Shown here: piece after piece, positions 16,196 through 50,420 of the stretch
Layout: each line of letters starts with the position of its first letter
Position numbering within the stretch: position 1 is the stretch's first letter
Assembly (NCBI RefSeq): GCF_963506605.1
Contig: NC_083281.1
Location: forward strand, 88,102,001-88,166,000
Reading direction: 5' to 3'
DNA: 64,000 bases
From: Zootoca vivipara
Lineage: Eukaryota
Position numbers and translations under genes: made by a program
Notes under the pieces: model-generated
Database searches by the model: none
Seen by the model: the letters and a program-made list of their open reading frames with translations, nothing else
Told to the model about the DNA's origin: nothing

Positions 16196-16905
16196 TGTTA
16201 TAAGAATTTTAAGGTCATATATATATATAATAATTGTTCATAAAACATGTACATGAATGTACAGAAACATGTCTGAAGCAGCACAGGAAAACAGGCCTGA
16301 CTGACACCATTTTGACTCTCTCTGACCAGGTGTTCCTCTGCAAGGAAGAAGTGGGGTGGGGGGGAACCTTCTCATTGTCTCAGGAATTAAAGTGATAATC
16401 CCTGGCATCCTGATACCTGACTGCCAGACAAAAGGGTGTGATTAACTTGGCTGGGAAACAGGGAAATGTAAATATCTCTCAATTTTGTTGATTAGGTTCT
16501 GGGGGCAGGGGGCAGGGTCCAGGGTGCTCAGATTACTGCCACCAGACCTCCCCTTTCATGATGTACCTATGATGAATCTAGGGAGGGGGGGTCTTGGGCT
16601 ACACCCCTTCTGTGACATATGGATGATGCTTCTGGGGGGTGGGCTGAAACCAATTTCAAATCTCTTTTTAAGGACAAGACATCTTTGTTTGGGGGTTCCT
16701 TCCTTGTTCTCCTGTGTGAGAGGAAGGACCCTGTTGCAACAGCAAAAATAAAAGTGCCTTGCTTCGCACGTCCTGGTTTGGTCTCTGTTATTTGGTGGGC
16801 AGGAGACGCTTAAACTTTGTCTGCTTGCCAGGATACCTGGACTCTTCCTGGGTCAAGGATCCACTTAATTCTAGGGCCGTGTAGCTCTGCAAAATTTTTA
16901 CAACA
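16196..16905 (+). repeat. 3' LTR
   Basis: Identical to 8716-9425 at offset 7480; duplicated ORF-track entries 9005/16485 and 9139/16619. Confidence 0.95.
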
Positions 16906-18599: not shown

Positions 18600-19986
18600 C
18601 TTGGTCTCTTTCGGGAGCCCCTGCATGCCAGGCTATAAGCAGAGGAAAAGGCAGGAGTGTGTGAAATGGCAACAGCTGTGAGAAGCAGGGTTTAAATGGA
18701 CCACCGCAGCCCCTGGTGAGCAAATCAAGCTAGGGATTGCTTTTGCGTGATCTGACAGGGGAACAAAAGGAGGGGCTGGCAAGCTTATTGCAAAAGAGTC
18801 CCATCCTGGTATAAGTGTGTTTTTTTCCCTAAACGGGCAGCTTAACTTTTGCCCTCCTTCATGCCGGCTTTTGCAGACGCTGTCTGCACATCGCTCAGTT
18901 TCCATGGGAATGATGGGAGACGGATGGAGCGATGCAAGCATCCTGTCTTGGGCAATCTAACTGAACGCCTCGGGAATCTGGAACCACCCCCTGAGGCTGG
19001 CAGTTTTGAAATGAATGCAAGATGGGTCTAAGCAAAGCCAGCCAAATGGGGAAAAGAGCGCTGACAGACACTCGGCTGCTGGGCCGTTGACTGAGGGTGG
19101 TGCCATGCCTTCAGGCTCACATCGGCACCATACATTTACAACGCACCTTCCTATTTTCCTATTTGTATCTCTTGCAGCCAAAACCACAACTCTAGTCCGT
19201 GAAACTTCAAAGCATAATGCATTGAATGGCCTTTGAAGGTGCACACAAGGTTCTGTGTTGCTTCAGGAAGAACACGTTGCTGCTGCTGTCAGTGGAGACA
19301 TACTCCAACTGACCTAGCAGTTAGATGGTGTGATTTTGTTTCCATCTGATCCCTCTTAGCTCTTTTTCTTTTCATTGCTTTCTTTTCCACAAAACCATTT
19401 TTCTTTTTTCTCTCTGTTGCCCCCTTCTTCCTCCACCACTTCCCCCGACATTCCTTGAGGTCTCATGAGGCCCTAAGCTACTGAAGGTAATGGGGCCCTT
19501 TATATGTCCAGCTGTCCCACCTCTACAATGGATCGCGGGGAGGCTGCAAAGGAGGCCTTCTTCCCCTGAGGGTTCTGTCGCTGAAATGGCCAGCAGGAAG
19601 GGTAGCATACAAATTTAAGAAATTTGAGATATTAAGAAATCCCCACCTGCCATTCCCTGGGCATTAAAGCACCAGAACCTTCTCATATTGGAGCTCTCAC
19701 GGGGGTGAGAGGTTATGCGAACCCTGTTAGGATGTTGGAGGCAAAGCTCCATGAGGAAGAGAAGCAGAATTTATTGTTATTTCTATTTCCTATCAGGGAA
19801 TCCCTTGACTGGGCCAGTCCAGCCGCCTTCAGACCTTGGCCCTTGTCTGTGGGGCAACGCAGAGGCCTTGCAGTCACTTGCTCCCAGGAAAGGGGGTGTC
19901 AGGTCTTCTGTCTGCTCCTTGGGGTCTCCTGCTCTCAGCTGAGTCTGCATCACAAGGCAGGACAGGCTTCTGAAGCCTGCCTTGTG

Positions 19987-20060
19987 ATTGGCTGCCTAGT
20001 GCAAAGCAGCCAATCCTGCCCTCGGTGGGTGTCGCCAGGGGCGGGCGGAAATGTATATAA
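19987..20060 (+). promoter_or_regulatory. Putative Pol II promoter module (ATTGG, CCAAT, GC box, TATA)
   Basis: ATTGG 19987, CCAAT 20010, GGGGCGGGCGG 20038 and TATATAA 20054 in canonical order; motif inference only. Confidence 0.45.
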
Positions 20061-20833
20061 GCCCTGTTTTGCCAGTCTGCTCCGGAGGCCTCAAGGAAGC
20101 CTGGAGGCTGAATGGCTGCCTTAGCTCTTGCTTAAACTCACCTCTCTTCCCTCAGGGCTCAGGGGGAGGCCCTTTGTGAGGGCAAGGGGCCCTTGGAGCC
20201 AGGCTCCCTATTCTCCATAAACACCCACCCAGCCCATCCTGGAACCTAGTGTAGGATAACACGGTTGCAACTGAGCCCCTCAAGTGAGCCTGTGCGTTTG
20301 CCAGGCACTGCCTGGTGCTGCTGCCTGTGGGGCCCAGATAAGCCCCCCCCCAGGGGAATCTGAGAGGGGCTTGAGCCCCACAGCCCCCATGAAGTTGGGC
20401 ATGAAGGCCTACAGGGTCAGTTGCTGCATCTCTGTCCAAGAAGAGCTGGGGGTGGGGAAGGGCAGCTTGGCCCCAGCAGGACAGGACAGGACAGGACTTG
20501 CCTGGGGACATCTCAGGCCTCTCCTTGGGCCTTGGGGAAGGGGCTCTTCCTCTGCCTTCTTCCTCCACATCCCTTCCATTGGGTGTCTTGTCTTTGGACT
20601 TTCCAAACCTGAGGAAAGGACTTGTCTCACCTTCTTTTAAATCGATGTCAGCTGCTTTAGGAGACAACAAGAGTCTGCAAAGCAGGATAAAAACAAGAGG
20701 AAATGTATGAAACTGTACATTTCAAAGAACAGATATATCAGCCTTGAGTTGCATGGCATTAACATTGTTCTAACCACTAGGCCACACGGACTCTCCTAGA
20801 ACACTGGCACTGAGGCCGGGCATTCCACGTTCT

Positions 20834-20854
20834 CAACTGCCGTTGCCTAGCAGC
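20834..20854. promoter_or_regulatory. Adjacent MYB-like and RFX X-box-like motifs upstream of putative MROH-like exon 1
   Basis: CAACTGCC (reverse complement GGCAGTTG) abutting GTTGCCTAGCAGC; second X-box-like GTTGCCATGGCCAG at 20989. Confidence 0.4.
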
Positions 20855-20954
20855 GGAACTTGTGACCGTTTGAACTGAGGTTCCTGCATCCTCAGCATCT
20901 TGAGGTTGGCAGAGGTGGCCTGTAGTGACCTTCGCTCAGTCACTACATTAGAAG

Positions 20955-22534
20955 ATGGCGTCCCAAAGACTCCTGGAGGTAAGGGGAGGTTGCCATGGCC
21001 AGGGGACTTAACTCTGGAACCTAGATTAATGGTCTCACCAAGTTTGGCAAAGAGTCAAAGAAAGGGTTGAGCTTTGCCCAGGTTTTTGGAAGGGGAGAAA
21101 GAAGGAATGCCAAAAAGGAAAATTCAGTGTCCTATATTGCAGTCGATAGAAGATTATTTTGAACAAAGGATTCCTTCTGATTTATGTACATGGGAATCTG
21201 GGAGAAGCTTCATTTCTATTTCCACATGCTGGATGTTATCTTTGTACTATAGTTTGGAGGGAAAGGGAAAAACAGAAGGAGACATGAGAGCGTGAGCGGC
21301 TGGCCCAGTGGAGGGGAAGGGGGTGACGGATGGATCTGTTTTTTCTGCAGAGGCAGGGAGCCCTGCTGCCCACCTGTCCACAGAGTCCATTGCAGGAAAG
21401 GGCTGCTCCCAGGTGCAGGTGAGGGAGAGACAGGAGGCCTGGCGGAGCTCTATTCCTGGAGGAAGGACGGGTGAGAAACAGCGCCATGAGCTCTGCTGAG
21501 ACAGGCCAGCTCCCTCAGGCCTCCTCTCCCCCAACTGTCATCGGGCGGCAGCCATTTCATCAGGCTGTCTCAGTGGGAAAGATGAGAACAGCATTCTAGA
21601 CATTGGGGCCTGAGCTTGTGAGTTGTCTTTTCCTCTGCCCTCCTTGACCCCTTTCCTTGTGTACTGTATTTCTGTTGGTTAGATTGTTTGTTACAATAGA
21701 AGTCTGCCATTAGGGGGTTTCTTGCATTTGATTTCATGGAAGGCTCTCTTGGAGCCTTTTTGGCTTAAGAGAGGGGTACAAATGCTCTAAATCAGGGGTG
21801 GCCAACTTCCAAGACACTGTGATCTACCTGATAGAGTTAAAAACTGTCAGTGATCTACCCCCTTTTGGGGGATTCAGGTCAAAGTGTTGTTGAGCTTTTT
21901 TTAGGAAAGCCCTGTTTTGGGGGTTGCAGGCCAACATTATTGAACTTTTTTTAGGGGAGCCAACAAAGTTGTTGAGCTTGTTTGTGAGAAGCCAGTGATC
22001 TACCAGTAATCTACCACAAACATCAAGTGATCTACCGCTAAATCACAATCTACCTGTTGGATGTACCTACTCTAAATTAATGGATGGATGAATAAGGTCT
22101 CTAAGGAAATGGAGGACAGAGATTTTTAGTTTGTTTCCCAACCTACCACGTCTGCGCTTTCCTGATCAACACAAAAACATGAGTGGGTCTGATCCACTCC
22201 TCACATTCGGACGTTCCTGTTTCTCTTTTCTCATGGACAGGGAATTGATTTCGATGAGGATCAAATATCGGAAATCAGCCTAGAAGATGGGGAGGATCTT
22301 CCTCCAAGGTAATGCTATGCTAAACCCCCTCCCCCATAATCAATTGCTTTCAAAAGCCCCCCCCCCGTCCAATTCTATGGTGGTGGTGCTTGGGGTCTTT
22401 AAAGGAGGGGAGGCAATAAAACCTTTTTACACAAGTGCTACTCCTCTCTCCTCTCAGCATCCCAACCACAGGTTCTCCGGATACGGCTGATGTTCCTCTT
22501 GAAGGCTTCAGCGAGGACCAGCTGAAGGCCAGAC
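20955..22534 (+). other. Putative ancestral 5' coding exons of MROH-like copy 1 (20955-20978, 22241-22308, 22458-), now out of frame
   Basis: aagATGG MASQRLLE|gtaagg; GIDFDEDQISEISLEDGEDLPP|gt; phases are compatible using the 175-bp exon of copy 2, but that exon is 173 bp in copy 1. Confidence 0.5.
21793..22069. mobile_element. hAT MITE (GATCTAC-repeat family)
   Basis: CAGGGGTGGCCAAC ... GTTGGATGTACCTA; 8-bp TSD CTCTAAAT (21785-21792, 22070-22077). Confidence 0.88.
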
Positions 22535-25500
22535 ATGGATGTCGTCACCACGATGAAGAGCGGGAAGAAGATGGTCCGAAGGGAGGCGCTCCGAGATCTT
22601 TCCGCCCTCCTGCAGAAGATCCGGGAATATGTGAGTTTCTGAAGCAAAGCATTGCAACCATGCAGGGCTGTCAAGGCCTTCAGGCTGCCCCTTCTAGCCC
22701 CACCCTTCTCTTATCAGTTGCTTCTCTGGGTTTCTTCTCAGCCATCGGTATCGCTTCCTGCATCCTCCCTTGGCCAACTGGTGGCTATTTCCTGTCTGTG
22801 TGCCTTGGATCCAGACCCGGAGTGCAGGCAGCGGGCAGCAGAGGCTCTCTGCCATCTTCTGCCCATCCTGCGGCGTAAAGAAGGTAAGACTGAAAGAATG
22901 CATCCCAGAATGGGGTGGGGTGAGCAAGACCCCAACTAACCCTTTGGCTTTCCTTTGCAGAGACGCTGGCACGAACATCAAGGAACCCAACACTCATCAC
23001 CAGAGCTCAGAAGTTCCTCAATTCCACCGGAGGACCGGTTCCTGAATTGTTCGTCAACGACTGCTACTCTCTTGCCAGGGTAAGTCGCTGTCACACAAGG
23101 CACAGCGGTCTCTCAAGCCACATCTTCTGGGTTCCGCAGAGAAAGCACCTGGGCTTTCTGCTCCCCAGCCCTGCCCTGTGGGCACCTCTGACTTTCCTCT
23201 CTTGCTTCAGGTATTTGGCGCCTTTCTCCCTGCGGAGCAACTCTTGGAAGCCATGTCCTTCCTGGCCAGCAACCTGGTTCTTGAGAGCAGATTCCACCCC
23301 TTGGACATCTCCCACCTACTGCAAGAGTTCATCAAGCAGTTTAGCGGCAAAGCAGTGGAGGTAAGGTGTCTGCAAAGGTAGGAGAGAAGAAGAATCTCCA
23401 CCTTGATGTAGGGGAGGCAACCTCATGCCATTGAGTGGCCAGGACACATGTTTGTTGGGAGGGGCCTGGCAATGTCAGGACCAGAAGCGCAGCCAAGGGT
23501 CCTGAGAAACATGGGTTCAGGAATGGGGAACCCTCCTTCTGGGAGCAGCCTGGCAAGCTTCTTCTCTTGGCCCACAATGGAAAGGGAACTGGTTCCCTGC
23601 AGCTGCCTGGGTCCAATACTCCCAAGGACCCTGAGTGGTACCTTTGAAGGAAGATGGCTGTGGTGGCACAGGTCAAGGGTCCCTCTTTCTATGAGGGATG
23701 GAGGGATCCGCCTGCAGGCAGCCCCGCTTCCTTGTACTCTCCCAGCAACCTTCTCTTTTTCTCTGACAGGTGGAGGTGCTGCTGGAGGCCTTCTATAAGA
23801 TCACCCAGGGGCCTACAGTGGAGGGCAGAAACATGGCCATCTTTGCGTTCTCCATCTTGACACACCAGCATCTGAACAAAGTGGTTGAATACCTCCTCCA
23901 GTTTCCCTTCAGGTATGGAGCCCTCCAGGTTCTACTGGGCTAAGGGAAAGGTTGGCAAGCTGCAGGACTTGCTCAGAAAGCCCTTCCTGACATTTCCTCT
24001 CTCTGGGGCATGGCACCAAGCACAACACTGGAATCTGACCATTGCTCTTGTTTTTGCATTCACAGAGACTGCGAGAGAGTATGGAAGGAGGTTTTGACAT
24101 CGGCCGACCAAGAACAACTGCTCCATCTCATGGCCGAGCAGCTTTACCAAAGCCCCTTGGCGGAATCTGCCACCCAAGTGGTAAGGACGAACCACCTGCT
24201 TTCTGGCTTCCTTCTTCCCAGGGGAATATCGAGGGGTTTCTGTATTCTGCAGAAAAGCAGGGAAAGTGACTTGCACCTCTCTCTCTTCCAGCAACATCTC
24301 AGCAGCCTGTTGCACGCCATCCTCAGGATGGAGGAATACAAGGCAGCTGTGCGCCAGAACTTCCCACAGCTGCTGATCGCTCTCCTGGGGATGGTTGTCA
24401 ACTTCCACTATGACCAGGAATTCCTCGAGTGAGTAGCGTGTTGCAAAGGGGCCAATGGAGTCCTTTTCCCTTCAACCTCGGGGGGGGGGGGTGTTTTCCA
24501 GTCCAACTTGGTATTCTAAGGGAGCCTCTCCTTCAGGCGGCTGCTAGGGAGGCAGGATGCGGAAGGAATTTGAGTGGGTGGCAATGACCCTCCTGGTAAA
24601 ACTGGCCTTGCTTTTGTTACAGAGGGGCTAAGGAAGTTCTGCACCTCCTTCTCAGCACCACTGGAGAGCAAGTTGAGGCGGCCATCATTGACCAACTTTT
24701 CTGCCGGGACAATTTCAACCAGGGGTTGTCTGCCATGGTGAGGTAAGAGGAAGAACACGGTGACTTTCCCCAATGGTTTGGCAAACAGAGCTGAAGGCAC
24801 GGGATCGGACTGTGCCCCTGTTTGCTTCCTGCAGTGTCTTTCCCTTCCTTACCCACACCTGGTTCTCCATTTCAGAGCTGTCGGAAAGCGACGTTGGTGG
24901 ATCCGTCCCATGGTGGAAAATATCACCGCTGCTCTCGGGGACCAGGAGTTTGCCGGAATGCCAGAAGTAGCGGCAGCTATCTACATCGAGGTGAGGGGGA
25001 CTGACGCGGGAGGAAATGGGTGCAGCAAGGAGGCCCTGGCTTGGTTTCTGCCGAGTGTTGGGCTTTGTGTTCTTCGGCTCCCTTTGTGTCCTCCATTAGA
25101 ATTTGAACCTTGCAGCTGCCTTTACCTTCCATATTCTGTGGCTTTCCTCAAGGCTTCTTTGAGCCGAAGGAATGTTGCCTGTTTTAGTGCTCCTCAGAGT
25201 AGACCCAGTGGATTTGATGTACATGACGAACTTTGGTCCATTCCCTTCAGTGGCTTTGCTCTGTGCAGAACTACAGGTGGTAGATAAAAGGAGAACCTGC
25301 CTCAACCTCTCATCACTGAAGACTTTCTTTCTCTTTGGGCCTCTTTAGCTGCTCAGCTGCCGTCTGCAGGTTCCCTGTCAGGATACATTGGAGCAGCTCC
25401 ACACCTGGCTGTCACATGACCACCTGCAAGTCCAGAAGCTCAGCGCCAGAGGGATATCCCTGATTCTGGACTCTGACATGGCAAGTGATGCTCAGAGGGG

Positions 25501-27658
25501 GGAGGGGGGAGGGGGGTACAGATCCCGTTTCTAATCATGGGCCAGCACTCTTTTGCTGGCAGAATCCTGAAGGGCCTGTGAAACGAAAAAGTGTGGGGCC
25601 TAACAGACCTTTGAAAAGATTCTCTCTTTTGTGTAGGACCCTTCGCTTCTGCGGCTGTCGCTGCCGGATTTCTTCCCTGATGCAGAAGCTGATGTCTTCC
25701 CACAGATGTTAGAGCTAGTAGACCAAGCCTACATGAAGATGCTGGCGGCAACCTACTGTGATATGGCTTCACATGTGAGTATTAGGGAACACAGGACATC
25801 GCCCAGGGTGGAGGAGGAAGGGTGGTGTTTAGCCTGGCATGCAGCAGAGATCTTCTGGCTTCAGGAGCGTGTTCCTTCCTCTGGAGCACCTTCTCTTGGA
25901 AGCCTGCCTGGAAAACCCAGGGGGAGAGTCACCCCTGCCCCCAGTCTCCCCCAGGAGGAGGATAGGGGGCTGAGCAGCCTCAAAACACCTCGGTGGACAG
26001 GAGAAAGGAAACTGATCAGATGAGAAACACAACCTCTGATCTTTTCTGCCTACAGGAGGAAGCCTCCGTCCGGGCAGCAGCCATCCAATATCTGGGGCTG
26101 CTTCGGGGCTGGGCGAGAGACCAAAGGCTTCCCATAACAACAACTAAAGAAGAAGCCATTAATGAACTGGTCGTCGTCCTCATTCACCTCGAAGACGAGG
26201 ACGAGGTGGCCAAGGTGAGGGCCAAGGAGGTGGACTCACGCACGCAGTAGGAGGGAGGGATTGTTCTCAGGAGCTTCCGGGATTTTTTTTACGACAATTT
26301 GTAACCCTCTTCTCTTCTTGTGTTGCAGGCCGCAAGGAGGGCTCTTTCCCATCTAGCCCCACAAGTCAAGTGGTGGGCACATCCCAACAAATTTAGCCTC
26401 CACTTTGCTCTCCACCAGGCCGCCAAGCATCTGGTAAGGTCCCTCTGCTTCGTTGGCAGCTTTGCCCAGGGATGTCTTTGGGGGTGACGGGCTCTTGTGC
26501 CACACTCTCAAGCCTCTCTGATGCCACCTCTCCTTTGTCTTTGCCAACAGAGCAAGACCTTCAGCAAGAACATCCTTCGGAGTGCTGCCTTGGCATGTAC
26601 GAAGCCATCTGCCAACAGGCTGCCAGCAGTCTCCAGGGTAGCAGCTCTGCTTCTGGGTAAGTCAAGCAACGTCCTTCCCTGGTAGGAATGGACAGAAACG
26701 TTTTGGTAACAATGGCAGGGAGGATGGGCATGTCCCCAGGCCACCTGCTAGGTAGGGCTCCATCTGCGCCCAGATCTTGCTCTGAGTGCTCCCGAGAGGG
26801 TGGAGGCCCTCTGTCTCCGCTTGCTTTGCACCGAGATGACGTCCCTTTTCTTGCCTTGTCTCTCTAGGTCATCTGGCTTTCCGGGATGCCGGTTTCATCC
26901 ACAGTCAAGACATGGCATCCTACGGCACATGTAAGTGAGACATACAGAGGGCTGGGAGGGATGCTTCTGCTGAGAAAGGGCTTCAGGGGAAGGCAGGTTC
27001 CCAGGTGTATGTGCAGACAGAGGTGCCACAAGATGGACATGCAAAGAGAATTGGAATGTGACTTCATTGCTCTCTCTCACACACACAAATATTTCCCTGC
27101 CCCACACCCTGGTCCTGGGAGGAGCTCCGGTGGGGGTGCTTTGCAAGTTTTTGCCTTGTGAAAAGCTGATTCCTCCTCCCCAAGGGGAACCGCCACTGCT
27201 TGTGTCCTGGTTGGGGTAGATACCCTGTGGACTCCTGCATCCGCCCCTACAACCAGCGCACCTCCCCTGGCCCGATTGCTGGGGCCACCTGATGGCTGTC
27301 TTAATATTTTTGATGGATGGCTCTTTTCCTGTGCATCTCCGCCTTGCTCAACCTTTCTCCCTTGCCACTCAGGGCTGGAAGAGATGCAGCAGTACGAGGA
27401 AGAAGGGCTCAGGCGGACAGGGAGGAGCTGCCTGAACATCATGCAGCGGGCCTATAAACATCGGCAGAAAGGCAGGGTCCGGCGCCTTGTGAGGAGGCTG
27501 CTCTGCTGTATTCACAGGGAACCTTACCCGCAGGACTTCCTGAGCTGCATGCCAGGTGAGTGAGGCACCTGGTGGGCTATTTGGGCATCTGGTGGGCTGT
27601 TTGGAGGTGACATTTCTCAAGGAGCCCCTTTCTCCTCCTGACAGAACTTCCGCAGTAG
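22535..27658 (+). CDS. Maestro HEAT-like repeat (MROH-family) protein, copy 1; 17 coding exons, ~678 aa
   Basis: Exons 22535-22630, 22742-22883, 22961-23079, 23211-23360, 23770-23912, 24066-24180, 24292-24428, 24623-24742, 24876-24990, 25349-25480 (GC donor), 25637-25774, 26056-26214, 26329-26433, 26551-26656, 26868-26930, 27373-27555 and 27645-27658 total 2037 nt, all phases compatible, no internal stop. Motifs LDPDPECRQRAAEAL, FPQLLIALL, VQKLSARGI, VRAAAIQYLG and LVVVLIHLED..VAKAA resemble MROH HEAT repeats. Confidence 0.75.
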
Positions 27659-28625
27659 CGCCAGGCCAAGGCAACGTGAACATCAGAGTTGTGCTGCAGA
27701 GATACCGTCTTCTGCTCTCCGTGGGATCCAGCCTGGATCAGCGCCAGGAACATCAAGGCCATCAGGATCGACCAAGAGGAGTGGTGCTGCCCTCACGGCC
27801 CTCCTTACATAGCGGTAGGAAACCTTTTGTTGTTGTTGTCTTTTTTGTTGATGTTGGTTTTGACTGTTGATGTTAACTAGTCCACGATCTGGTCGATCTT
27901 TCCTTTCTTGTTTTCCCTTTGTTGGGGGTCCCGCCCCCAGGACAGGCAGGCTTTATGGAGCTCCCCCAGTCCAGGGTCCGGTTCCTTGCAGGACTCTCTG
28001 CCGTCCTCTCAAGTCCTCCCCAGCAGCAACTTTCTTCCATTTCTTTGCTTATTCGCCAACAGCAGGGATTGTTAGGGGCGGGGGCAATAAGAGGGTCTAA
28101 CATTCATGAGATTTCGTACCCTTTCTAACAGAATCTCTTTTCTCTCTTTCCTGCATGGAACAAAACCGCGATGGGAAACGGCGGCCTATCTGCTGGAGCC
28201 TGGGAGGAGACGTCCGGATAAAAGAAGAATGTCATCAGCCGCGAAAGAAGCCGCCCTGAAGACGACACCTGCAACATCGACCCTCCAGCTGGCAGTGAAT
28301 TTCAGGACTGGACACTTTCTATTGACTCTTTCGGGACTTAAAACAGCAAGCGGGACTTTCTTTAGTAAGATAGGTTGAAATGGATGTATAGAATAGGATA
28401 GGCAAAACAGGGAGCATTCAAGGTTACGAGATAGTGTTTTGTATATTATTTTTGTTCCTTCTTTCTTTGTTCTCCCCCCCCACTTCCCCCCTTTGTATCA
28501 CTTGATTTCTTTATAATTGTAATTCTCTTATTAAAAATATTTTTAAAAGGGTAAATACGGATCTTATGGTTTTTGTTAAAATGTGCAAAAATATCATTTT
28601 GTCAAAAATGAATAAATAATATTTT

Positions 28626-29606
28626 TGTTAAAAAGAGAAACAGGTGTTTTGGTTTGTGAAAAGTAAGCTAGTAAGGGAAATCTCTACCCTCTACACACTT
28701 CCCTGGAGGGATGCCCATCATCCCAAGATGGAGACATAGAGGCTGGTGGCTGGGGTTGCGTCTGGTGAGTTGGGAGGATGCTGGAATCTGGAGAGGCAGG
28801 AGATTGTCTTGCTCTGAGCTGGACCCAGAACTTTGGCCTGGGAATCCCTGGGAAGCTAAGGGGGGAGCAAGATGGAGGGTTATTGCCATGAAACGCTTCA
28901 TCCTAGCATCTATGTGCAAGCAAAGCCTAATATCCCAAAGTCTTCATTCCAGGGAAACTGAACCCAGGCTAAGCACGGGCACCCCTGGAGTCGTCTGCTG
29001 CTCAGAGATGGGAGTGTTCACAACCTTCTCTTTTCACCATCCTGCCCCACTTCCTCATCAGTTCTCTCCAAATACTTCTCACCTGAAACCTCCAGTGGCT
29101 GAGACAAGATCCAAGCTATGGGAACTCATGAGCCAATGTTAAGAAGACAGAATAAGAGAGAGGTCCCTGCCAAAGTCTCCAGCATTGAAAGAGTATTTTT
29201 GTTTGGGGGAGGTGGGGAGGGGCAATAGGAAATCTGGGCTTGCTGTCCCTTCAGCACTTCACAGCCCCTGCTGGAAACAAAGAGTTGAATCCAAGGCTGC
29301 CTATGGGAAGGCAGATTTGGAGGGTGTGCAGGGAGGAGTCTCCTGTGAAGAAGAGGGGGAAATCCCCTTGGGAAAGGAAGAATGCTGCTGCGCTGGGGGA
29401 AGAGCAATGGAGCCTACAACCTGTTGCCTAAATCTATGCTGTTCTTCCCTGGGATACATGTTCCAAATTCACTCCTGGCCCCTGAAGGAAAGAGGGTCAG
29501 ACTTCTTAGAGGCAGAACTCAGGTTTATTCTGCTGAATAAATAAGGGACAGACCCCTGACTTCTCAGGTCAGAAAAAGGGTCTGTAATACCTTTGGTTTT
29601 TGTAAC
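28626..29606. mobile_element. LTR-like element
   Basis: Termini TGTTAAAAA...TTTTTGTAACA; AATAAA at 29536; terminal ~170 bp homologous (inverted) to 34900-35070; orientation ambiguous. Confidence 0.45.
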
Positions 29607-29755
29607 ATTCTCCCCCCTCAAGACTTTCAAGCGCTTCCTTTCTAAAAGACTATCTTCACCCTCCTGCATATTTCACTTGGTATACATTACAAAACCAACT
29701 GCACTCGGCACATGCCTAATGAAAGCTGTTTAGCAAAGCAAAATACAAACATAAC

Positions 29756-32105
29756 AGAGCATTTGTACCCCTCTCTTAAGCCAAAAAGGCTCCAAGAGGG
29801 CCTTCCATGAAATCAAATGCAAGAAACTCCCTAATGGCAGACTTCTATTGTAATAAACAATCTGACCAACAGAAATACAACACACAAGGAAAGGGGGCAA
29901 GGAGGGCAGAGGAAAAGACAACTCACAAGCTCAGGCCCCAATGTTTGGAAAGCACCCATTGGAGTCGGCACTCCTGGAAACCACCCGATGCGGGCACGGG
30001 TCCCATAACTTGGAATTTTAATTAGATAAAAGTTTTCGGCATGCCTCAGATAAAGGAGCAAAAAAATTATTGCCTGCGGACTCAGCCCTGAGCAGTAGAA
30101 AAAAAGACTTGATTTACGGCCAATAAGAGGTAAGAGGTGGAAACATCGGAGAAAGGAAGATGGATTATCTGGAGAAACCGAGAAGCCTGACAGGGAAGTG
30201 GAACCCCCCCCCCTTTTCTTCTTCTTCTTCTTCTCTTAAACATAATACTCAACACCTTTTCTGGACGGCTATCGGAATTACCTAGAGCAGCGGGAAAATA
30301 GAAAATACCAAACTGTGTGGACATGGAAATATAAACAATATAAAAATGGAGGCTTTATATATGCTTTGATGATTTTGTAAAAGTCTCCCTGACAGCTGGT
30401 ACTCGTTGGGATTCGTCGTGGACTGATTTAGAAGATTTAAGACTTGTGTCGCAGTTAGAAATTGAGAAAACACAAAATGGCCCCAAAACGGAGAGCAGCT
30501 AGAGGCGGGGAAGAAGCCATTGTTTGTTTTTAGAAGAACGATAAGATTTGACCTGGCTAATTCCTCGCTGGAAAAGCTGTAAATCTGTTTTCGGAGAAGC
30601 TATGGAGTAGAAATTTGGACATGATTTGTGCTTTGTGTGCTTTGTTGGGCTTGGAAGACCAGCGATCAGAGGGAGACTTAAAGCCACACGATAGAAAAAT
30701 TTTCGGTAAAACCTGGCTGGCACCATAACTCAGAGGCTTGGAGAAGATTGAAGGATGTCAACAAAGACTGTTAGGAAAGGACTGTATTATTTTGGGACAA
30801 TATTGAAGGTTTACATTTCAGGCTGAATAACAAGGGAGAAATTATTAAAAGCAAAAGGCAGTAGTGATTAGTAGGAAGCTCTGGAATCTGAGGCATGGTG
30901 AGTGGGAAAAAATTAATATAATTGGGCATAATTGGAATGTTTCCTTTAATTGGAATTGTATAATTAATTTGGAAAAAGTGTAATTGGGAATAATTTCAAT
31001 GTAATTCGATGTTGTTTAATTGGAAAATCTAATAAAAATCATTTAAAAAATGGAAAGTCCAAAGACAAGACACCCAATGGAAGGGATGTGGAGGAAGAAG
31101 GCAGAGGAAGAGCCCCTTTCCCAAGGAGAGGCCTGAGATGTCCCCAGGCAAGTCCTGTCCTGTCCTGTCCTGCTGGGGCCAAGCTCCCCTTCCCCACCCC
31201 CAGCTCTTCTTGGACAGAGATGCAGCAACTGATCCTGTAGGCCTTCATGCCCAACTTCATGGGGGCTGTGGGGCTCAAGCCCCTCTCAGATTCCCCTGGG
31301 GGGGGGCTTATCTGGGCCCCACAGGCAGCACCAGGCAGTGCCTGGCAAACACACAGGCTCACTTGAGGGGCTCAGTTGCAACTGCCTTATCCTACACTAG
31401 GTTCCAGCATGGGCTGGGTGGGTGTTTATGGAGAATAGGGAGCCTGGCTCCAAAGGCCCCTTGTCCTCACAAAGGGCCTCCCCCTGAGCCCTGAGGGAAG
31501 AGAGGTGAGTTTAAGCAAGAGCCAAGGCAGCCATTCAGCCTCTAGGCTTCCTTGAGGCCTCCAGAGCAGACTGGCGAAACAGGGCTTATATACACTTCCG
31601 CACGCCCCTGGCGACACCCACCGAGGGCAGGATTGGCTGCTTTCCACTAGGCAGCCAATCACAAGGCAGGCTTCAGAAGCGGACTCAGCGGAGAGCAGGA
31701 GACCCCAAGGAGCAGACAGAAGACCTGACACCCCCCCTTTCCTGGGAGCAAGCGACTGCAAGGCCTCTGCGTTGCCCCACAGACAAGGGCCAAGGTCTGA
31801 AGGCGGCTGGACTGGATCAGTCAAGGGCCTCCCAGATAGGAAATAGAAATAACAATAAATTCCGCTTCTCTTCCTCATGGAGCTTTGCCTCCAACATCCT
31901 AACGGGGTTCGCATAACCTCTCACCCCCCCCCCCGAGAGCTCCAATATGGGAAGGTTCTGGTGCTTTAATGCCCAGGGAATGGCAGGTGGGCATGAGGAT
32001 TTCTTAAATTTGTATGATACCCTTCATGCTGGCCATTTCAGGGACAGAACCCTCAAGGGAAGAAGGCCTCCTTTGCAGCCTCCCCGCGATCCATTGTAGA
32101 GGTGG
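29756..32105 (-). repeat. Right (inverted) arm; lacks the equivalent of 20611-21599 and carries a retro-insertion
   Basis: Direct alignment to the left arm; includes mirrored TTATATA 31586-31592 and CCAAT boxes 31632-31659. Confidence 0.9.
29953..31050 (+). mobile_element. Short L1-like non-autonomous retroelement
   Basis: CpG-containing 5' part, AT-rich 3' end with AATAAA and A tail, 7-bp TSD TGGAAAG (29946-29952, 31051-31057). Confidence 0.6.
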
Positions 32106-33163
32106 AAAGGAGCCCAGAGACCCCTTAGTCTCCCAGCAAGAGGCCGAGGGAGACGGAGCTTTGCAAGCAGAGGCTGCTGCTCCAGGAAAGGTCTGGCTGC
32201 TTCTCTGGGAGCCATTGGCAGCAGCTCCGCCCACCCCCGAGGAGCCTGCTGGCTGACGAGCTCTATTGGCTAGCCTGGAGCGTCAATCAGCCAGCTAGTG
32301 AGGGCGGACTCATCTTGCGAGGTGCCTAGCCAGGTAGGCCGCGCAAGACAAGCAGGTTAGGGTGAGGGGAAAACTTTTACATTTTATTTCTTATGCCTTC
32401 AAGAACGTGAACAAAGGCATCCCAAAAGGAGCAGGGGACTCTATGCCTCCGAAAGGGAACCAATCCGTCTTTGGAAGGCCAGGTGGCCACCCCAGCTGGG
32501 GCTTTGCTTCTTCCTGTGGCGTAGACTCTCCAAGTGTCCCTCTTTTCCAGGGACTGTCCAGGATTTACAGAAGCCACCTCGGTTCCTGATTTGACCCCAG
32601 AATGGCCCACTTTTCATTAGGACGTTCCTATTTTCATCAGAGAAATGTTGGAGGGTATGGAATTATGTGACCCCTGAGCCAAGGAGCGAAGTAACTATAT
32701 ACAGCCTTTAGAAGCAATCTGATGGCAGTCCTGTACTGTATAGGAAAGTTGTGTAGTGTTTAATGTTTTAATATATCTTGAAACCATCCCGGAGTGGCCT
32801 GAGTTAGGGTTAAATCCATTATGGGTCCGAGAAATATGAACCGAGGCAGGAACCAGTCAAAATAAGGCAGATCTTAATTTTACTGTTTCTCACCATACAT
32901 GTTGCATGGAGGTGAGGACCCAGGACAAGTGTGTGTAACAACTCAAGACTTGAGAAATTTCCCATAATTATAATAATAATAATTTATTTTTTATACCCCA
33001 CCCATCTGGCTGGGTTTCCCTTAGCCCAGAGGTTGGCAACCTTTCTGAGTCCATGGCTCCCTTGACCAACCACAACCTTTCCGTGGCAGCCCTGTGAGGC
33101 TCAAGACCCCAGCTATGTCACCCCTTGCCAGCAGAGCTGTCAACCTCTTTTCAAACACCTTCC

Positions 33164-33316
33164 NNNNNNNNNNNNNNNNNNNNNNNNNNNNNNNNNNNNN
33201 NNNNNNNNNNNNNNNNNNNNNNNNNNNNNNNNNNNNNNNNNNNNNNNNNNNNNNNNNNNNNNNNNNNNNNNNNNNNNNNNNNNNNNNNNNNNNNNNNNNN
33301 NNNNNNNNNNNNNNNN
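33164..33316. other. Assembly gap (N run)
   Basis: Ns in the sequence. Confidence 1.
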
Positions 33317-34883
33317 ACAGCCGCAGCTGCTGCCCCTTCCCTAAAGAGAGGTGCCTCCTCACGCTGCCCCACAGGGCACCCTTGACCATCATTCAAGGCA
33401 CCAAAGGGTGCCACAGCACCCTTGTTGAAAACCACTGCCCACCCAACAAGCATCATACATACATCACAGAAAGAGGCAGTCTTGTCTCTTGTCATGATAC
33501 CTGACAATGCTTGCTGGTTGCCCTTTCCTGGCCAGTTTCAACCATTCCCATGGCTGTCAAGTTCTCCCTTTTTTAAAGGGAAATTGCCTTATGCTGAATA
33601 GGCTTCCTCGCGAGAAAAGGGAAAACTTGACAGCTATGGATTCCCTTGAAATGGCAAAGACCTCAGTTCTTGAATCGATTGTCGCAGATCTACCCCTATT
33701 TATATGAGAGGTTTATAGCTTTTGAAGGATCAGTAAGTGAAAAGAACTACAGTATTGGGAAAGGTATTTCTTCACTGCAGAGTAAATATCTGGGGTCATT
33801 AAGAGGGTCAGGATTGCTCTTTGAACTCAAAGAAAGTGTCTCTTTCTTCAGGGAATATTTTATAATTTTTGAATGGTGAAGGATTGGTTTTTCTCTAGGG
33901 TGTGTTTGCTATGTGTGCACCTTAAGATTTGTGTAACACTCATGCCAACTTCTGTTGCCCAGCGCCTGCAAGCCCCCTACTGTGACATCATAGAATGCTT
34001 GCAGTTTTTTAAATAAACCCCACCAGCAACTGCTCATCAGGAGCAGAAGTGAGCAGCTTCTGTGAGTGAAGTGAAGGGCTGTTTCTCAGAAGAGGAAACC
34101 GTGGGAGAGACTTGGGTTCAAATACCTCCTTAACTCAGCTATGAAGCTCACTGGGTGACCTGGGACCAGGTTGTGGGGATTAAAAGAGAAGGCAAGAGCT
34201 ACCATATTTATGGTAACTTGAGCTCCTTGGAGAAAAAGATATCAATTGAGATGCCATCAGAAGGGTTGGGCTCTCCTTCTTTGGAGGTTTTTTATACACA
34301 GAGGTCGGGTAGCCATTTGCAAGGCATTCTTGAATTGGATTCCTGTTTTGCAGGAGATTGGACTAGATGCCCCTTGGGGTTCTCTCCAAATCAACAATTC
34401 TATAATTTTGTTTTATTGATTAGATTGGAAACCGCTTCGGGACTACTCTGAGGTGCCAAGTTGGATATAAGTGCTGTAAATAAGAAAAGAGAGAGACACG
34501 GCGTCCTGTGAATGACCCCAGGCAGCTGGCAGAATGCACACATCTCCAATGAACCAGACTGTCTTGCGTGAGGATATCCACCCCAGCCTCCCTTCGTCTC
34601 TGCAAGGAGAAGCCTTTTGCGGGGACAGCCATGGGGGTCCCTTGCAGAAATCAGAAGCATTAATCACTTTTGCTTCTCAGAAGATGATCATCGTACTTCG
34701 TTTGCTTTTGTACTCATTGCTTTTTGCTGCATATATTCGAAGTATATTTTTCCCCAACACATAGGACAGTCCGAGAGGGAACGGATTGCAGGCTCTTCGG
34801 AAGCAGATAACATCAAAGAGGGAGCTAGCAGGCCCGGCTAGCAGAACAGGGGTGTGCAACCAATTTGGCAAGCAGAGATGAAA

Positions 34884-35819
34884 TGTGACTTCTTTCTGTA
34901 CCTTACAGACCCTTTTTCTGACCTGAGAAGTCAGGGGTCTGTCCTTTATTTATTGAGCTGAATACACATGCGCTCTCCCTTTAAGAAGTCTGACTCCCTT
35001 TCCTTGGTGGTGGTGGTGGGGAACTGGAACACCTATCCAATCAAAGAACAGCCTGGATTTCTGCAACAAATGGGTGCACTGGCCAGGAATTCCCTTTGGA
35101 CCACTGCAGCAATCATCTGACAAGATAGCCCAGGCTTCTGCGGTCCACACTGACTTGGCCATGATGTTGCTGTCGCCACAGGTCAAGCGCATGATCCAGG
35201 ACTCTCTAGGAGGTTTCTCAATGCGTATTCTAGAGCAGTGGTCCTCAACCCCCGGGCCACGGACCGGTACCGGTCCGTGGATCAATTGGTACCGGGCCGC
35301 CCAAGGAACATTTAATACAATTAAATTAAAATTATTACATCAAAACAATCTAAATAAAATATAAATAATCAACGCCCCCCCCCTCAGCGGACCACGAAAC
35401 AATCAAGGGCCCCCCCTCAGCGGGCCGCAGTAAAATTATCAAACATTGACTGGTCCGCGGCGATAAAAAGGTTGGGGAGCACTGTTCTAGAGGACTCGGA
35501 GATAGAGGCAGAGGGAACCTGGAGGCTTCAGGACAAAGTTGCTGTTAAGCAGTGGACGCCGTGCCGACTGGAAAGGGTGAGTGGCCATCTGAAATTCCCA
35601 ATTCTGTTTTAAGAGAATGCCTGGTTTCTGCAATTGTATCCAATTCTGTTCTGTGGTCTGGTTTCTGGTGGTTTCTGGGGCAAACTTGTATTTTTGGTAA
35701 TAGAGCTTTCTGATATCTGGGGGTAGCCTGCTCTCCAATTCAAAACGGTCCTAAGAGACCAGGAGAGAGCCTCTGTCTGTAGATGATAGAAAGGTTTGAG
35801 AAAAAGAACAGCCTACACA
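34884..35819. mobile_element. LTR-like element related to 28626-29606
   Basis: TTACAGACCCTTTTTCTGACCTGAGAAGTCAGGGGTCTGTCC shared in inverted orientation; right boundary uncertain. Confidence 0.4.
35236..35484. mobile_element. hAT (Charlie-like) MITE
   Basis: CAGTGGTCCTCAACC ... GGTTGGGGAGCACTG; perfect 8-bp TSD TTCTAGAG (35228-35235, 35485-35492). Confidence 0.92.
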
Positions 35820-38780
35820 TTAGGGTGTAAGAAATGAACTTTTCAAGATTCAAAGGAAATGATGTTAATGACCTTGGACTGTTTTGACTTTGCATTGGGA
35901 AGCGGAATGGAATCCTAGTTCTTATTTATGAGACTGGCCATTTCTAGAGTCCTGTGAAATCCATTTTACTTCACAAGGAAAATGGAAAGGTGACCTTGAA
36001 AGGACACGGGATCCATTCCCATAAAGAGATTGTGGCAGGATGTGATGTGGAAAACCCATAGTTTGGTCACAAGAGTGCAGCAAAAAATGTCAAGTCATCA
36101 ATGGCAAAACTTGCAGGATGAATAGTCAAGGACTAGGTCCAAAAGGTGGGGGAAATTAAGGGTGTGAATTAGTGAAGGGAGAGTTAGAAGAACAAGGTCT
36201 GAGTCGGTGTTTGTTGTGGCAAAAGGGGCAAAAGATCGTAAGAAAGTTTCCGGAAGGTGGTTGCAAGATGGTAAGAATACAAAATCTGAGGTTATTAGAT
36301 AGAAGAGTCAGGAATAAGGAAAGTTTTTAAAAGAGCAATAAAGTTCAGAGTAGAAGGCCTACAGGAAGTCCCAAGTGTGAAGAAGATTTTTCAGCTTGCC
36401 TGAAAGATTTTTCAAAGATGGAGATGGTAGTTTAACTCCCCAGCAGCAAGGCTCCAAATGATCAATTGATCTTATTGATATATGAACAATAACATCTTTC
36501 CACTGTCCCAGAACCTGAGATTGAAAGTGTGGATCCTATTGTTTGGACAGAATCAGGGGATGGCTTGAATTGTTACAGTCACCCCTATCAGAATTATGTT
36601 GGAATCTGGAGTGTTGGTAGACTGCAGGAGCCTTCATTTTGGAGCTCTAAGTTAAGAACCGAACCGGAACCTTTTAAATTGACAATTATAGCCTGTGGAT
36701 GGCTTAAAGAAAGATCCCTGTCCTTTAATTCTCCCAACATAGAGGTGTTGAAAGCAAGTAAATAAAGAGAAGCTATAAAGTCTCGAGGGAGAACCTCGTG
36801 GCATTTTACCAGAAGCTAGTGGCATTTTTGGGTATATTCTGAAGCAAGGAACTTGTCATGCCCAACCTGAGTTCTCAAAGGTCCTGAGAGCATTCTTAGG
36901 ACTTTGCTGGATTTGGCAAGAATTGGATGCCAGAAATTAGGGGAGAAGCAACACATTACAACACATTAACCAAAAAGGGTTCCTGGATTGAATATGGACT
37001 ATAGCAGGGGTGGCCAACTCTGTGATCTACCTCACAGAGTTAAAAACTGGCTGTGATCTACCCTCTTTTTGGGGGTTCAGATCAAAGTGTTGTTGAGCTT
37101 TTTTTAGGAAGGAAAGCCCTGTTTTGGGGGTTGCAGGCCAACATTATTGAACTTTTTTAAAAAATAATTTTTATTGGTTTTTTAACATATAACAACAAAC
37201 CATCACCAGCACACCAACCCACAGCAATACCTAAAGTAGAAAACAAACAAGAAACACAAATAAAGACATTAACATAAACATAATAAAAAAGAAAAAGAAA
37301 AACATACATATACGATAGTTCAAAAACCATTAATCTTTTCTGACATTGTAGGTTGACTTCCTCAGCCCCCCTTCCTATGGTTCATCTTGTACTCTCTTTG
37401 GCAATTTCATAATCATCATCTTAACATTGTTTCTATCTTAAACATGTTTATAAGTTTAAATTTTAAACCAAAATTCTATAATTATCCTGTTCATTATATT
37501 TTACATATTTATCATCTATAGCAACATCATACTCCTCTTATATATTATATTTCTACCTTAAACATACTTATTCATTTAATTCATATTATAAAATTCTTAA
37601 TCTACTTTTACACAATACTAAACTAAAAATTCTCTTCCCTTTATACCCATGCCTCTCTTCTAAAAACTCCCCATCTCAGTCAAAATCATATTTCTATTAT
37701 TAACCCTTCTAATCACAAGGCCCCTTTTATGGTCAGCAAGTCTATATAAACAGTCCTATTTTGGACTTCCGGGTTGAATGCGAGCGCCGGCGGCAGCGGG
37801 AGAGATTTTCTCCCGATCCTTGAAGGGTCCTGGGGGGGGTCTGCAGAGCGCGCAGCCCCCCAAAACTTCAGGTAGAGCGACCTGAAGCCTTGGCGACCTG
37901 GCAGCTGTCCTTTTTAGACCTCCTCCCCCCCGAAGAGCCCTAATAAGGGCGCGAGAGCGGAGAAGGTGGAAGGCACGGATACGGCAGGCACAGCGCTTCC
38001 CTTCAATGGAGCAGCTCCGATTTCTGATGGTGGAACAGCGTTCAACTTTATTTAAAAAAAAACATCTGAAAATCAGGATGTGAGTAACAGTGAGTAAACC
38101 TCGAAATTTGGAACAATTTCTAAGCAATTTGGCCATTGGGAGAACTTTTAAAACGGAGGCCGGGTTCTCCCCCCCCCCCCTGCGGCAGAGCAGAAAGCAA
38201 AGACAAGCCTCCACAGTGAACTGTTTAAAAAGAGACTTTGTATCCTTTATTTCTCAGACTTTTTGCTACAATATAAAAGAGAGCAGGGTCTCTAAAATAA
38301 CCCTGCAGATTTAAGCTTTAAAAGTACAGAAAGATCGCTTCGGTAAGCCTGGGAGCGGAGCTCCGTTCACCCCAGCCAGACACCCTTTGTGACGTCATAG
38401 AACAATCAGCTCTTGAACTTCTGTTCACCCTTTGACAGGCTTTGATCTGCCTGCAGCCTTCCTGTCAAATAAATAAAGGACTTTTTAAGGGAAATCTGCA
38501 ACTTTCTACCCTCAAAAAGTAAGGAAAATTAGGCTATATTATTTTCCTCGTAAAAACTATCTCAATTTCACTGCTCAGACTGGCTCATTGTGACTGTGTT
38601 ACTAGCTGGCTCAGGCTGGGAAACTTTAGATAACGGTGACCTTGAAAGTCTGGCTCAACAATTGAAAGGCTGACTGTTTACAACTGTTCCTTTTGATAAA
38701 AGGACATCTGGACTATAGACTGAGAGACAGCCTTTTGATTTTTTACTGAGCTTTAAATATGTCAGGACCAGAGCCCTCTG

Positions 38781-39659
38781 GTGGAAAAACAAGGGGGGGA
38801 AACTTCCTTTTCCTCCACGTTTGAGGAAGAAGTCTTAAAAGCATTAGCAACACTACCAGCACTGAGGGAAGGATTGGATCGCAACACCCAGGAACAGCAG
38901 CGCACCACACAAGAAGTGAGACAACGTAGGGAAGAATTAGGAGCTATCTCCAAAGATATTTCACAGGTTAAACTACAAGTGACTGGAGTTGAGCAAAGAG
39001 TGGTACAACTGGAAGAAGGAAGGGTCCCCGACTTGGAGAAGCAAGCCTATCAGACGCAGGTTGCACTTGCCTTTTTACAGATGAAACAGAGAGAGACAAA
39101 TCTCAGGATCAGAGCATTTCCTCTTATAGAAAAGGACAATCTGAAAGCTACATTAATTGAAGAATTCGTAAAAGCTTGGAATCTCCCAAAGGAAGAATTG
39201 GAATCACAGATTATAAAAGCATTCAGGTTTGGTGCAAGATCAAAGAAAGACAAAAACTTTGTTAGTGATTGTATGATATCATTCCAAACCAAAGAACAAA
39301 GAGACAGAATTTTGAGTCTACATTACGAGAAAACTTTGAAAGTTCAAAAAACACAGATCGTCCTTTTTAAAGATTTGCCCAAATTCTTTCTGGACCTGAG
39401 ATCCCAATATTCTGACTTGGCAACCATCCTGAAAAGGAAAGGAATCAACTCCAAGTGGGAATTTCCGGAAGGCCTAAATTTCCAATTTCGACAGAAGAAA
39501 TACAAAATCAAGTCAGTGGACCAGAAGAAAGAGTTTATCCAGAAACACGAGAGAGAGCTGCTACGACCAGGACTTCTAACCTCAACTCCAGGACAACTAG
39601 ACGACCCAATGGAGTTAGACTCCGATTATTATCTAGAAGGTGCAACTGCTGCAACCTAA
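38781..39659 (+). CDS. L1 ORF1p (coiled coil plus RRM/CTD, transposase-22-like)
   Basis: 292-codon ORF with heptad region, RETNLRIRAFP, IVLFKDLP and WEFPEGL; the likely true ATG at 38759 is 1 nt out of frame, probably at the G run near 38792-38799. Confidence 0.85.
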   Translation: MEKQGGETSFSSTFEEEVLKALATLPALREGLDRNTQEQQRTTQEVRQRREELGAISKDISQVKLQVTGVEQRVVQLEEGRVPDLEKQAYQTQVALAFLQMKQRETNLRIRAFPLIEKDNLKATLIEEFVKAWNLPKEELESQIIKAFRFGARSKKDKNFVSDCMISFQTKEQRDRILSLHYEKTLKVQKTQIVLFKDLPKFFLDLRSQYSDLATILKRKGINSKWEFPEGLNFQFRQKKYKIKSVDQKKEFIQKHERELLRPGLLTSTPGQLDDPMELDSDYYLEGATAAT

Positions 39660-39660
39660 G

Positions 39661-40140
39661 ATGTCGCTGAGGGTTTTTTCTTGGAACTCGAATGGATTGA
39701 ACTCAAAACAGAAAAGGAATCAGGTGTACCATGTTTTGGCAAAACAAAGATTGGACATAATATGCTTACAGGAGACACATGTCACAAGAGCTCATCGAAG
39801 AATTCTACAAAATAAAAAATTGGGAGAAGAATTTATCTCATCAGATGAAGTCAAGAAGCGAGGAGTAGTGATCTATGCAAAAGAGAAGTTAAGCCCTAAA
39901 TTAATATTTAAAGATGAAGAGGGAAGATATGTTGCAATTGAAATAACACCGCAAGGCGAAAAAAAATTAATTCTGGGAATTTATGCACCAAATGAAGGAA
40001 AATCGGATTTAAAAAAAAAAAAAAACTGCATGAGAAACTCTTGGACTATTTGGATTACAAACTATGTTTGTTGGGAGACTTGAATGGAGTGGTCTCAACA
40101 CTAATGGACAGATCACAAAGACAAAAATGCACCAAAGAAG
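39661..40140 (+). pseudogene. L1 ORF2 APE endonuclease N-terminus, frameshifted and truncated
   Basis: SWNSNGLN, DIICLQETH, RGV, GRYV and IYAPN, then a poly-A frameshift and LLGDLNG. Confidence 0.9.
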
Positions 40141-40862
40141 AAATTCAAAATCGAAAGTACATTCCTTTAGCATGAATTTCTGTGGCCCAATTCTTATTAA
40201 TTTAGCTGTTCAGATTTTTTATTTTCGGTACTCTCGGTACAGTCCCTTTTAGTTCCAAAATTAGGAAAAAAACAATCGCTGTTGCCTGGCAGGATCGCAG
40301 CTTCGTGCCTCCGAGATAGCTTTGTTCCGATGCACCGCATTTTGCTGCTACCCCCTGCTCTCTCGGCGCCCCAAAAACTAGGCAACCGATGGAGGGGGGG
40401 AGCACGCTCCTGGCGTCTGCCGGATCCATGCCCCCTAAATGTTCAATTAGGGTTTTTTTCTGGGTGGTTGCTGCACTGTAGCGGTCCCCCCTTGCCTCGA
40501 AGGCACCATGTCCTCATCAGCTGAGGAGAACAGCGCCTGCCATCGCCTCATGATCGGCTGGAAGTCCATTATTGAACTTTTTAAAGGGAAGTCAACAAAG
40601 TTGTTGAGCTTTTTGGGGGTGAGCCAGTGATCTACCAGTGATCTACCACAAACATCAAGTGATTTACTGCTAAATCACGATCTACCTGTTGGACGTGCCT
40701 ATTCTAAATGAATGTATGGTCTCTAAGGAAATGGAGGACAGAGATTTTCAGTTTGTGTCCCAACCTACCTCATCTGTGCTTTCCTGATCAACACAAAAAC
40801 ATGAGTGGGTCTGATCCACTCCTCACATTTGGACGTTCCTGTTTCTCTTTTCTCATGGACAG

Positions 40863-48870: not shown

Positions 48871-48899
48871 GGAAAGCAACCTTTTGTACTGCAAGTCAA

Positions 48900-50299: not shown

Positions 50300-50420
50300 G
50301 CGAAACTGCCGAGGGAACCCAAACTGCCTGGTAGGAATTGGTGAGCACATCTGGCTGGGGGAGATAGATGAAAACACCTTTCACAATATTGACGATCCAA
50401 ATTTCGAGAGGAGAAAAAAG
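50300..50420 (+). CDS. USP48: USP48 exon 2
   Basis: [40 protein letters not shown]; 121 bp, AG/GT. Confidence 0.96.

Follow-up and report, generated by a model that had tools for sequence, protein, structure and literature searches.

A 7.2-kb inversion with an adjacent deletion at the end of a Buster-type hAT MITE in a lizard MROH7-like gene array: a candidate alternative transposition event

The stretch analysed here (the window) consists of 64,000 nucleotides of Zootoca vivipara DNA (RefSeq assembly GCF_963506605.1, contig NC_083281.1, positions 88,102,001 to 88,166,000, forward strand); coordinates below count from its first base, and in the labels used for paralogs the window is G000:C6:88102001-88166000. 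It holds two broken copies of an MROH7-like (maestro heat-like repeat) gene, with two copies of one miniature inverted-repeat transposable element (MITE) whose insertion site is intron 1 of that gene. Judged by comparison with the paralogs examined, the segment 29756-37004, which lies between the gene copies, is inverted. One of its junctions lies exactly at the first base of MITE copy 2, next to an 8-mer of the type that this MITE family uses as target, and was very probably made by a transposase. The features of the locus are:

19517-21784, plus strand: block A of copy 1, upstream region and first coding exon (ATG at 20955), defined on the sequence, the exon by alignment to an intact paralog encoding protein P0006
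20955-27660, plus strand: MROH7-like gene copy 1, its frame shifted by the loss of 2 bp at about 22535
21785-22077, plus strand: MITE copy 1, 277 bp (21793-22069), with the 8-bp target site duplication (TSD) CTCTAAAT on both sides
28427-29755, plus strand: block C, downstream of copy 1, ending in ACATAAC; in paralogs the next base is T, then comes block X
29755-29756, no strand: left junction, a blunt join between block C and the former left flank of MITE copy 2, which lacks AAAT of its TSD; block X absent; candidate donor-flank footprint
29756-37004, minus strand: inverted segment of 7,249 bp, made of A' (29756-32105) and D (32106-37004)
29944-31057, no strand: dispersed repeat insertion in A' (29954-31050; long interspersed nuclear element (LINE)-like 3' end; 7-bp TSD CTTTCCA)
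36997-37004, plus strand: GACTATAG, new left flank of MITE copy 2, an nnnTAnnn target-type 8-mer
37005-40709, plus strand: MITE copy 2 overall; 5' part 37005-37158, 3' part 40567-40701
37159-40566: LINE insertion nested in MITE copy 2; TSD of about 16 bp, ORF1-like frame and endonuclease domain
40863-46090, plus strand: MROH7-like gene copy 2, pseudogene without the first coding exon and further disrupted by TGA at 41594, the loss of about 78 bp at 43257/8 and one extra base at about 44500
55870-56146, minus strand: young independent copy of the same MITE, TSD intact, outside the rearrangement; late family activity near the locus

The gene array and the uninverted order

The duplicated gene was recognized as MROH7-like from 16 lacertid matches, three of them named MROH7 by their source. 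Its two copies match P0006, a Z. vivipara protein, exon by exon, and the intact C15 paralog matches that protein at 750 of 751 residues; a Pfam scan of eight single-frame pieces from the two copies returned no family. The unit to which the gene belongs forms a large family, both dispersed and in tandem, represented on C5, C6, C12, C13, C14, C15 and others; on C15 and C13 the tandem copies are nearly identical.

The window was compared with nine paralog regions (400 kb in total). Among the matches listed, the unit in these regions is ordered rc(D)-A-(MITE)-B-C-X, where rc denotes the reverse complement, so that the segment 29756-37004 of the window represents the derived, inverted state. The pair in the window is what remains of a tandem array of the unit rc(D)-A-MITE-B-C-X. 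Compared with itself, the window displays a direct repeat (21793-28426 versus 37005-47529, with 3.4 kb inserted into copy 2) and an arm in inverted orientation (19517-21788 versus 32105-29756), the latter in two sub-blocks, 19517-20605 matching 32105-31051 and 21601-21788 matching 29943-29756. Block D includes a run of N (33164-33316). Trees of blocks A, B and D3 grouped the C6 copies (support 91-100) while those of C and D did not resolve them, and the branching order of the C6 copies was not recovered by the trees of blocks A, B, C and D. In three trees the branches of copy 2 (40567-47529 plus the arm) were longer than those of copy 1 (0.020-0.027 versus 0.005-0.008).

Junctions of the inverted segment

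The inverted arm terminates at 21788, after the CTCT of the 8-bp TSD CTCTAAAT (21785-21792), and the direct copy begins at 37005 with CAGGGGTGGCCAAC, the equivalent of 21793, which is base 1 of the terminal inverted repeat (TIR). These positions agree with those of a first-pass annotation of the window, which had also correctly reported that MITE copy 2 kept its original right TSD (TTCTAAAT, 40702-40709) beside a foreign left flank (GACTATAG). It had concluded that both breakpoints hit the same MITE end: one break does lie there, but 21788 and 21793 are the two sides of that one break, at the left end of MITE copy 2, and the other is at 29755 / 37004. Flipping 29756-37004 in silico rejoined the upstream block to the copy-2 MITE, as had been anticipated, in a single colinear match (21591-21951 to 36807-37158) that runs across the junction with AAAT missing. 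It did not, however, restore a plain tandem duplication, since block X is missing; and the contiguous AAACATAAC|CTATAGTCC that had been predicted for the uninverted state is absent from the nine paralog regions and from the window.

The right junction reads GACTATAG|CAGGGG, exactly at TIR base 1. GACTATAG is found unchanged at the D|X boundary in 8 of the 10 paralog copies examined. On a target matrix built from 58 TSDs of the MITE family it scores 4.92 bits, which places it in the top 0.57% of local 8-mers; 25 of the 58 true TSDs score no higher. At the left junction, the old flank of MITE copy 2 lost 4 bp and was joined blunt 7.2 kb away. Neither junction displays microhomology. The attribution of the right junction to a transposase follows from the coincidence of a break at TIR base 1 with an adjacent target-type 8-mer, which is strong evidence.

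Away from gaps, the arm differs from copy 1 by 41 substitutions in 1187 positions and the direct copy by 165 in 5314 (p=0.52); without a 10-bp alignment overrun the arm gives 38/1177, i.e. 3.2% versus 3.1% (p=0.85). The values for the direct copy come from three blocks, to the exclusion of the MITE (24/265) and of the last, repetitive block (23/444). A marked difference between the two, which had been put forward as the sign of independent events, was thus not found; the equal divergence indicates that the arm and the direct copy derive from one duplication, and dates that duplication, not the flip.

A block missing at the far breakpoint

Block X follows the end of block C in all eight paralog copies, and its other end follows that of D (GACTATAG) in 8 of 10; the remaining two have, respectively, an insertion there or no such part. 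This continuity on both sides implies that the event was an inversion plus an adjacent deletion of about 1.2-1.4 kb. In three C15 copies X measures 1371-1392 bp, of which about 170 bp are repeat; the exact length lost is uncertain because the nearest C6 paralogs bear deletions of their own in X. The end of block C, ACATAAC(T), is a TA-centred 8-mer that lacks one base.

The lost TSD bases AAAT (21789-21792) are also the first four bases of the lost X end after GACTATAG, a coincidence for which we have no explanation. Both block D (32106-37004) and block X of paralogs (e.g. G000:C15:36140508-36141893) contain fragmented reading frames, which we take to resemble retroviral pol/RNase H; a Pfam scan of one block D frame (34957-35361) gave no match. 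The repeated gene unit thus appears to include a degraded retrovirus-like relic, inside which the far breakpoint falls.

The MITE and its family

The TSD of the MITE was verified on paralogous gene copies: nine of them have the empty site, i.e. a single CTCTAAAT-like 8-mer, and four others have the MITE. The element is non-coding and has short TIRs, with ends CAGGGGTGGCCAAC / CAGGCAYRTCCAAC. Its family is of high copy number (2,115-2,999 first-look candidates; the family samples are the best 40 matches per search) and its members are 233-337 bp long. Among 68 delimited elements, 58 have 8-bp flanks that match with at most one mismatch, and in all 58 TSDs positions 4-5 are TA, in line with the nnnTAnnn target consensus of TcBuster (PMC3499496). 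On the basis of its TSD and ends only, the MITE would be a Buster-type hAT element.

The insertion is old, since the C12a paralog has the MITE at the same site, 11.5-15% divergent. MITE copies 1 and 2 differ by 9.0% and other C6 pairs by 3.0-6.9%. Independent insertions, including the 55870-56146 copy, differ by as little as 1.1-2.7%; being younger than the copy 1/copy 2 divergence, they indicate that the family moved after the duplication. The right TIR of copy 1 ends in A instead of G, a state found in 5/5 C6 copies versus 0/58 family copies. None of the 8 non-locus elements without matching TSDs (two of them with no right end found) was a case of exchanged TSDs.

A few side observations concern these elements. 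Two C6 paralogs in opposite orientation (G000:C6:89199216 and 89213233) both have a deletion of about 59 bp just inside the MITE left end. The inner part of the LINE nested in MITE copy 2 (37764-40143) has a counterpart at G000:C6:93.69 Mb with 96% identity. Finally, a young hAT family (L114-L116, on G000 C16, C8 and C2) has transposase coding sequence and 96-98% identity between copies; considered as the autonomous partner of the MITE, it was rejected because it starts with CAGTGGCGTA, unlike the MITE.

Origin of the rearrangement

The reading that we tentatively favour, at somewhat under an even chance, is that the inversion and the deletion arose in one single-chromatid alternative transposition (SLCT) by a Buster-type hAT transposase, in which the left end of MITE copy 2 was paired with a second MITE in inverted orientation. 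We favour it because an inversion, an adjacent deletion and one lost element make up the class of product described for SLCT (PMC3239180, PMC3429523). The MITE inserted into CTCTAAAT, in intron 1 of the MROH7-like gene, and a tandem duplication of the unit followed, as is seen at the locus. A family copy P would then have inserted at the C|X boundary in the opposite orientation, and transposase would have cut the left end of copy 2 together with the like-facing right end of P. Joining of the host flanks would flip the interval; the product expected from this, C|rc(A), is what the left junction reads, less a few trimmed bases. Both ends would then integrate at GACTATAG, within the flipped piece: the left end would seal the chromosome, giving the observed right junction, and P would leave as a circle together with X, which is indeed absent. 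The predicted outcome, C | rc(A) D GACTATAG | MITE without P and X, coincides with the arrangement observed, and a second GACTATAG TSD copy, beside the partner end, would have been on the lost circle.

Two traits expected of SLCT are present: the element end lies precisely on a new target-type site, and the inversion is juxtaposed to a deletion. The donor flanks would have left a footprint, which on the A side is the trimmed TSD (4 bp lost) and on the C side is weakly TSD-like; hairpin and non-homologous end joining footprints are consistent with such a 4-bp loss in the old flank (PMC3499496). Two other pairings were rejected. Reversed-ends transposition between MITE copies 1 and 2 is contradicted by copy 1, which still has CTCTAAAT on either side. 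The young MITE at 55870-56146 has both flanks intact, and a sister-chromatid route would leave an inverted duplication.

Several observations weigh against SLCT. No MITE was present at C|X in any paralog examined, and partner P is postulated. A search of 43 transposase loci (taken with 1.5-kb flanks and covering 30 of 74 PF05699 matches) and of the wider stretches compared did not yield an autonomous element whose ends match. As a target the C-end 8-mer ranks low (0.98 bits, top 4%): among the 58 true TSDs, scores this low occur only three times, and since two further TA-centred registers overlap it, its resemblance to a TSD is weak evidence. The first 90 bp of MITE copy 2 differ from copy 1 and C6a at five positions that those two share, and at four of the five the base is a family state (39C in 45 of 66 family copies, 68T in 8, 74T in 44, 85A in 3); judging from these states, copy 2 could have a foreign 5' end. 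SLCT is known from tissue-culture-regenerated rice and engineered elements, and in that material 11% of the rearrangements were recombination inversions (PMC3239180). Lastly, both junctions are known from the assembly alone; four contig sets compared with 29200-37400 gave repeat-dominated matches, and no junction-bridging piece among the matches listed, which proves nothing either way.

A foreign 5' end is what ectopic recombination would predict. A MITE Q, inserted at GACTATAG in inverted orientation, would have recombined with copy 2, and the left hybrid element, which would carry two intact ends, would later have been imprecisely excised together with X. We regard this route as unlikely, although it accounts for GACTATAG|TIR equally well and for the four family-type states at positions 39-85. 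BuT5 and Galileo inversions are documented to have arisen by recombination (PMC3698922), which has also been proposed for hAT MITEs in cod (bioRxiv 2025.01.09.631634). In the present case the route requires three events, however, there is no MITE remnant at 29755, and the usual picture, an element at both breakpoints with exchanged TSDs, is not seen. From about position 90 onwards copy 2 is of locus type, with a GT insertion found in 0/66 family copies and marks at positions 135, 148 and 150 found in 0-1 of 23; before that, it keeps the locus-type T at 28 and the extra C at 34. The signal at positions 28-85 is mixed, and any crossover would be confined to the first 89 of the 277 bp. Moreover, the 27-base haplotype of copy 2 occurs once in the genome, at sites where both subfamilies vary, and private changes are about as numerous in copy 1 over this stretch.

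One-ended transposition, which we consider quite unlikely, would dispense with the second element: the left end of copy 2 alone would be cut and joined to GACTATAG, and the old flank would be repaired to a resected end, with loss of X. The A instead of G at the end of the right TIR would suit a left end acting alone, and so would the separation of the two ends of copy 2 by the 3.4-kb LINE insertion, if this preceded the flip; the weak target score of the C end suits an arbitrary resection point. An extra break is required at C|X, and no published hAT inversion of this type was found, the available part of PMC6182136 treating Tn5 and mariner. The terminal change, in addition, may not disable the right end, given that Ac of maize copes with a C/T difference in its own terminal base.

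Double-break repair or template switching independent of transposase, with a break at the MITE end by chance, is very improbable. The array is unstable, with many unrelated deletions and insertions in X and D of the paralogs, and the AAAT coincidence could be called upon; but a microhomology join on AAAT would leave one AAAT and none is left, and the break would have to fall exactly at TIR base 1 and, independently, next to a flank within the top 0.6% of target scores. An assembly error is hardly credible: the region is multi-copy, but such an error would hardly remove 4 bp of a TSD, lose X and hit TIR base 1 beside a target-type 8-mer, and paralogs that are 3-6% different can be separated by long reads.

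The transposase-driven inversion proposed in the first-pass annotation gains support, as to the transposase, from the position of the junction, its lack of microhomology and its target-type flank; it has to be amended in that the event was an inversion plus a deletion and that recombination keeps a small share of the probability.

Relation to known systems

Inversions of animal chromosomes at DNA-transposon copies are usually attributed to ectopic recombination, direct cutting by transposase having been shown mainly in plants and with engineered elements. The closest counterpart of the present case is SLCT of Ac/Ds in rice (PMC3239180; PMC3429523): there too, a hAT end sits on a new target, the host flanks are joined with a footprint, the inversion adjoins a deletion and one of two inverted elements is lost. 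The rice events involved transgenes under tissue culture, whereas the lizard event is natural, concerns a non-autonomous Buster-type MITE and has a postulated partner. Reversed-ends and sister-chromatid transposition of maize Ac/Ds (PMC1592236, PMC3470690) likewise use the ends of two elements to generate inversions and deletions, but the former should have given copy 1 a new right flank, and that flank is intact, and the latter yields inverted duplications, none of which was seen here.

Among animals, BuT5 and Galileo in Drosophila (PMC3698922) and hAT MITEs in Atlantic cod (bioRxiv 2025.01.09.631634) also provide MITEs with non-matching flanks at inversion breakpoints. In those cases the element is present at both breakpoints (with exchanged TSDs for BuT5); in the lizard it is present at one, the other being a trimmed blunt join with a deletion. 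Sleeping Beauty in transgenic mice (PMC1584263) is another cut-and-paste transposase associated with local inversions and deletions in a vertebrate germ line, but it is an engineered Tc1-family element mobilized from concatemers, and the authors left the mechanism open. As for the element itself, Buster-group hAT MITEs (TcBuster, PMC3499496) share the 8-bp TSD with central TA and short imperfect TIRs starting with CAG; the lizard MITE is assigned to them by its TSD and ends, its cognate transposase not having been found.

In a literature search that left most subscription papers outside, we found no hAT alternative-transposition event that was natural, came from a vertebrate and had been resolved to the base. 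The lizard locus may be one, with a probability that we put slightly below one half: an SLCT in which an endogenous hAT transposase acted on the ends of 277-bp MITEs, the one at this locus being older than the expansion of the gene cluster. It is best described as a known mechanism in a new setting, with likely involvement of a transposase and little local effect. If that is right, non-autonomous ends can still be enlisted, long after their insertion, in the inversion and deletion of host DNA. The event leaves a signature that can be searched for: one TIR on a new nnnTAnnn site, an old TSD that has been trimmed and attached elsewhere, and a deletion alongside. Lacertid genomes each contain thousands of such MITEs, so that one could count what share of small inversions arose in this way.

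Consequence for the MROH7-like genes

Block A contains candidate promoter-like CCAAT, GC and TATA boxes (TATATAA at about 20054-20060), and the flip points those of A' away from copy 2. The first-pass annotation had described copy 2 as decapitated by the inversion, which is right in the geometrical sense only; the ATG exon, however, was taken from A' by a separate deletion of about 1 kb (copy-1 20610-21600), 3 bp from the repeat insertion, and both gene copies are broken, so that the decapitation was probably without effect. The lesions may have arisen in any order, and the inversion cannot be credited with killing copy 2. The exons tested in the close paralogs C6a and C6b1 are without frameshift, with only a shared late stop at codon 745; because both window copies are broken while these paralogs are not frameshifted, the local biological effect is probably nil.

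Other features of the window

Exons of a ubiquitin hydrolase gene (48600-56000, with Pfam UCH matches), which we presume to be USP48-like, begin shortly past the end of copy 2 (47529). Two 710-bp direct repeats with 100% identity lie 7.5 kb apart (8716-9425 and 16196-16905), possibly young terminal repeats or a very recent duplication. A near-perfect palindrome of 110 bp is located at 53076-53185, and a second short MITE family, with TA-centred flanks, is represented at 62361-62508.

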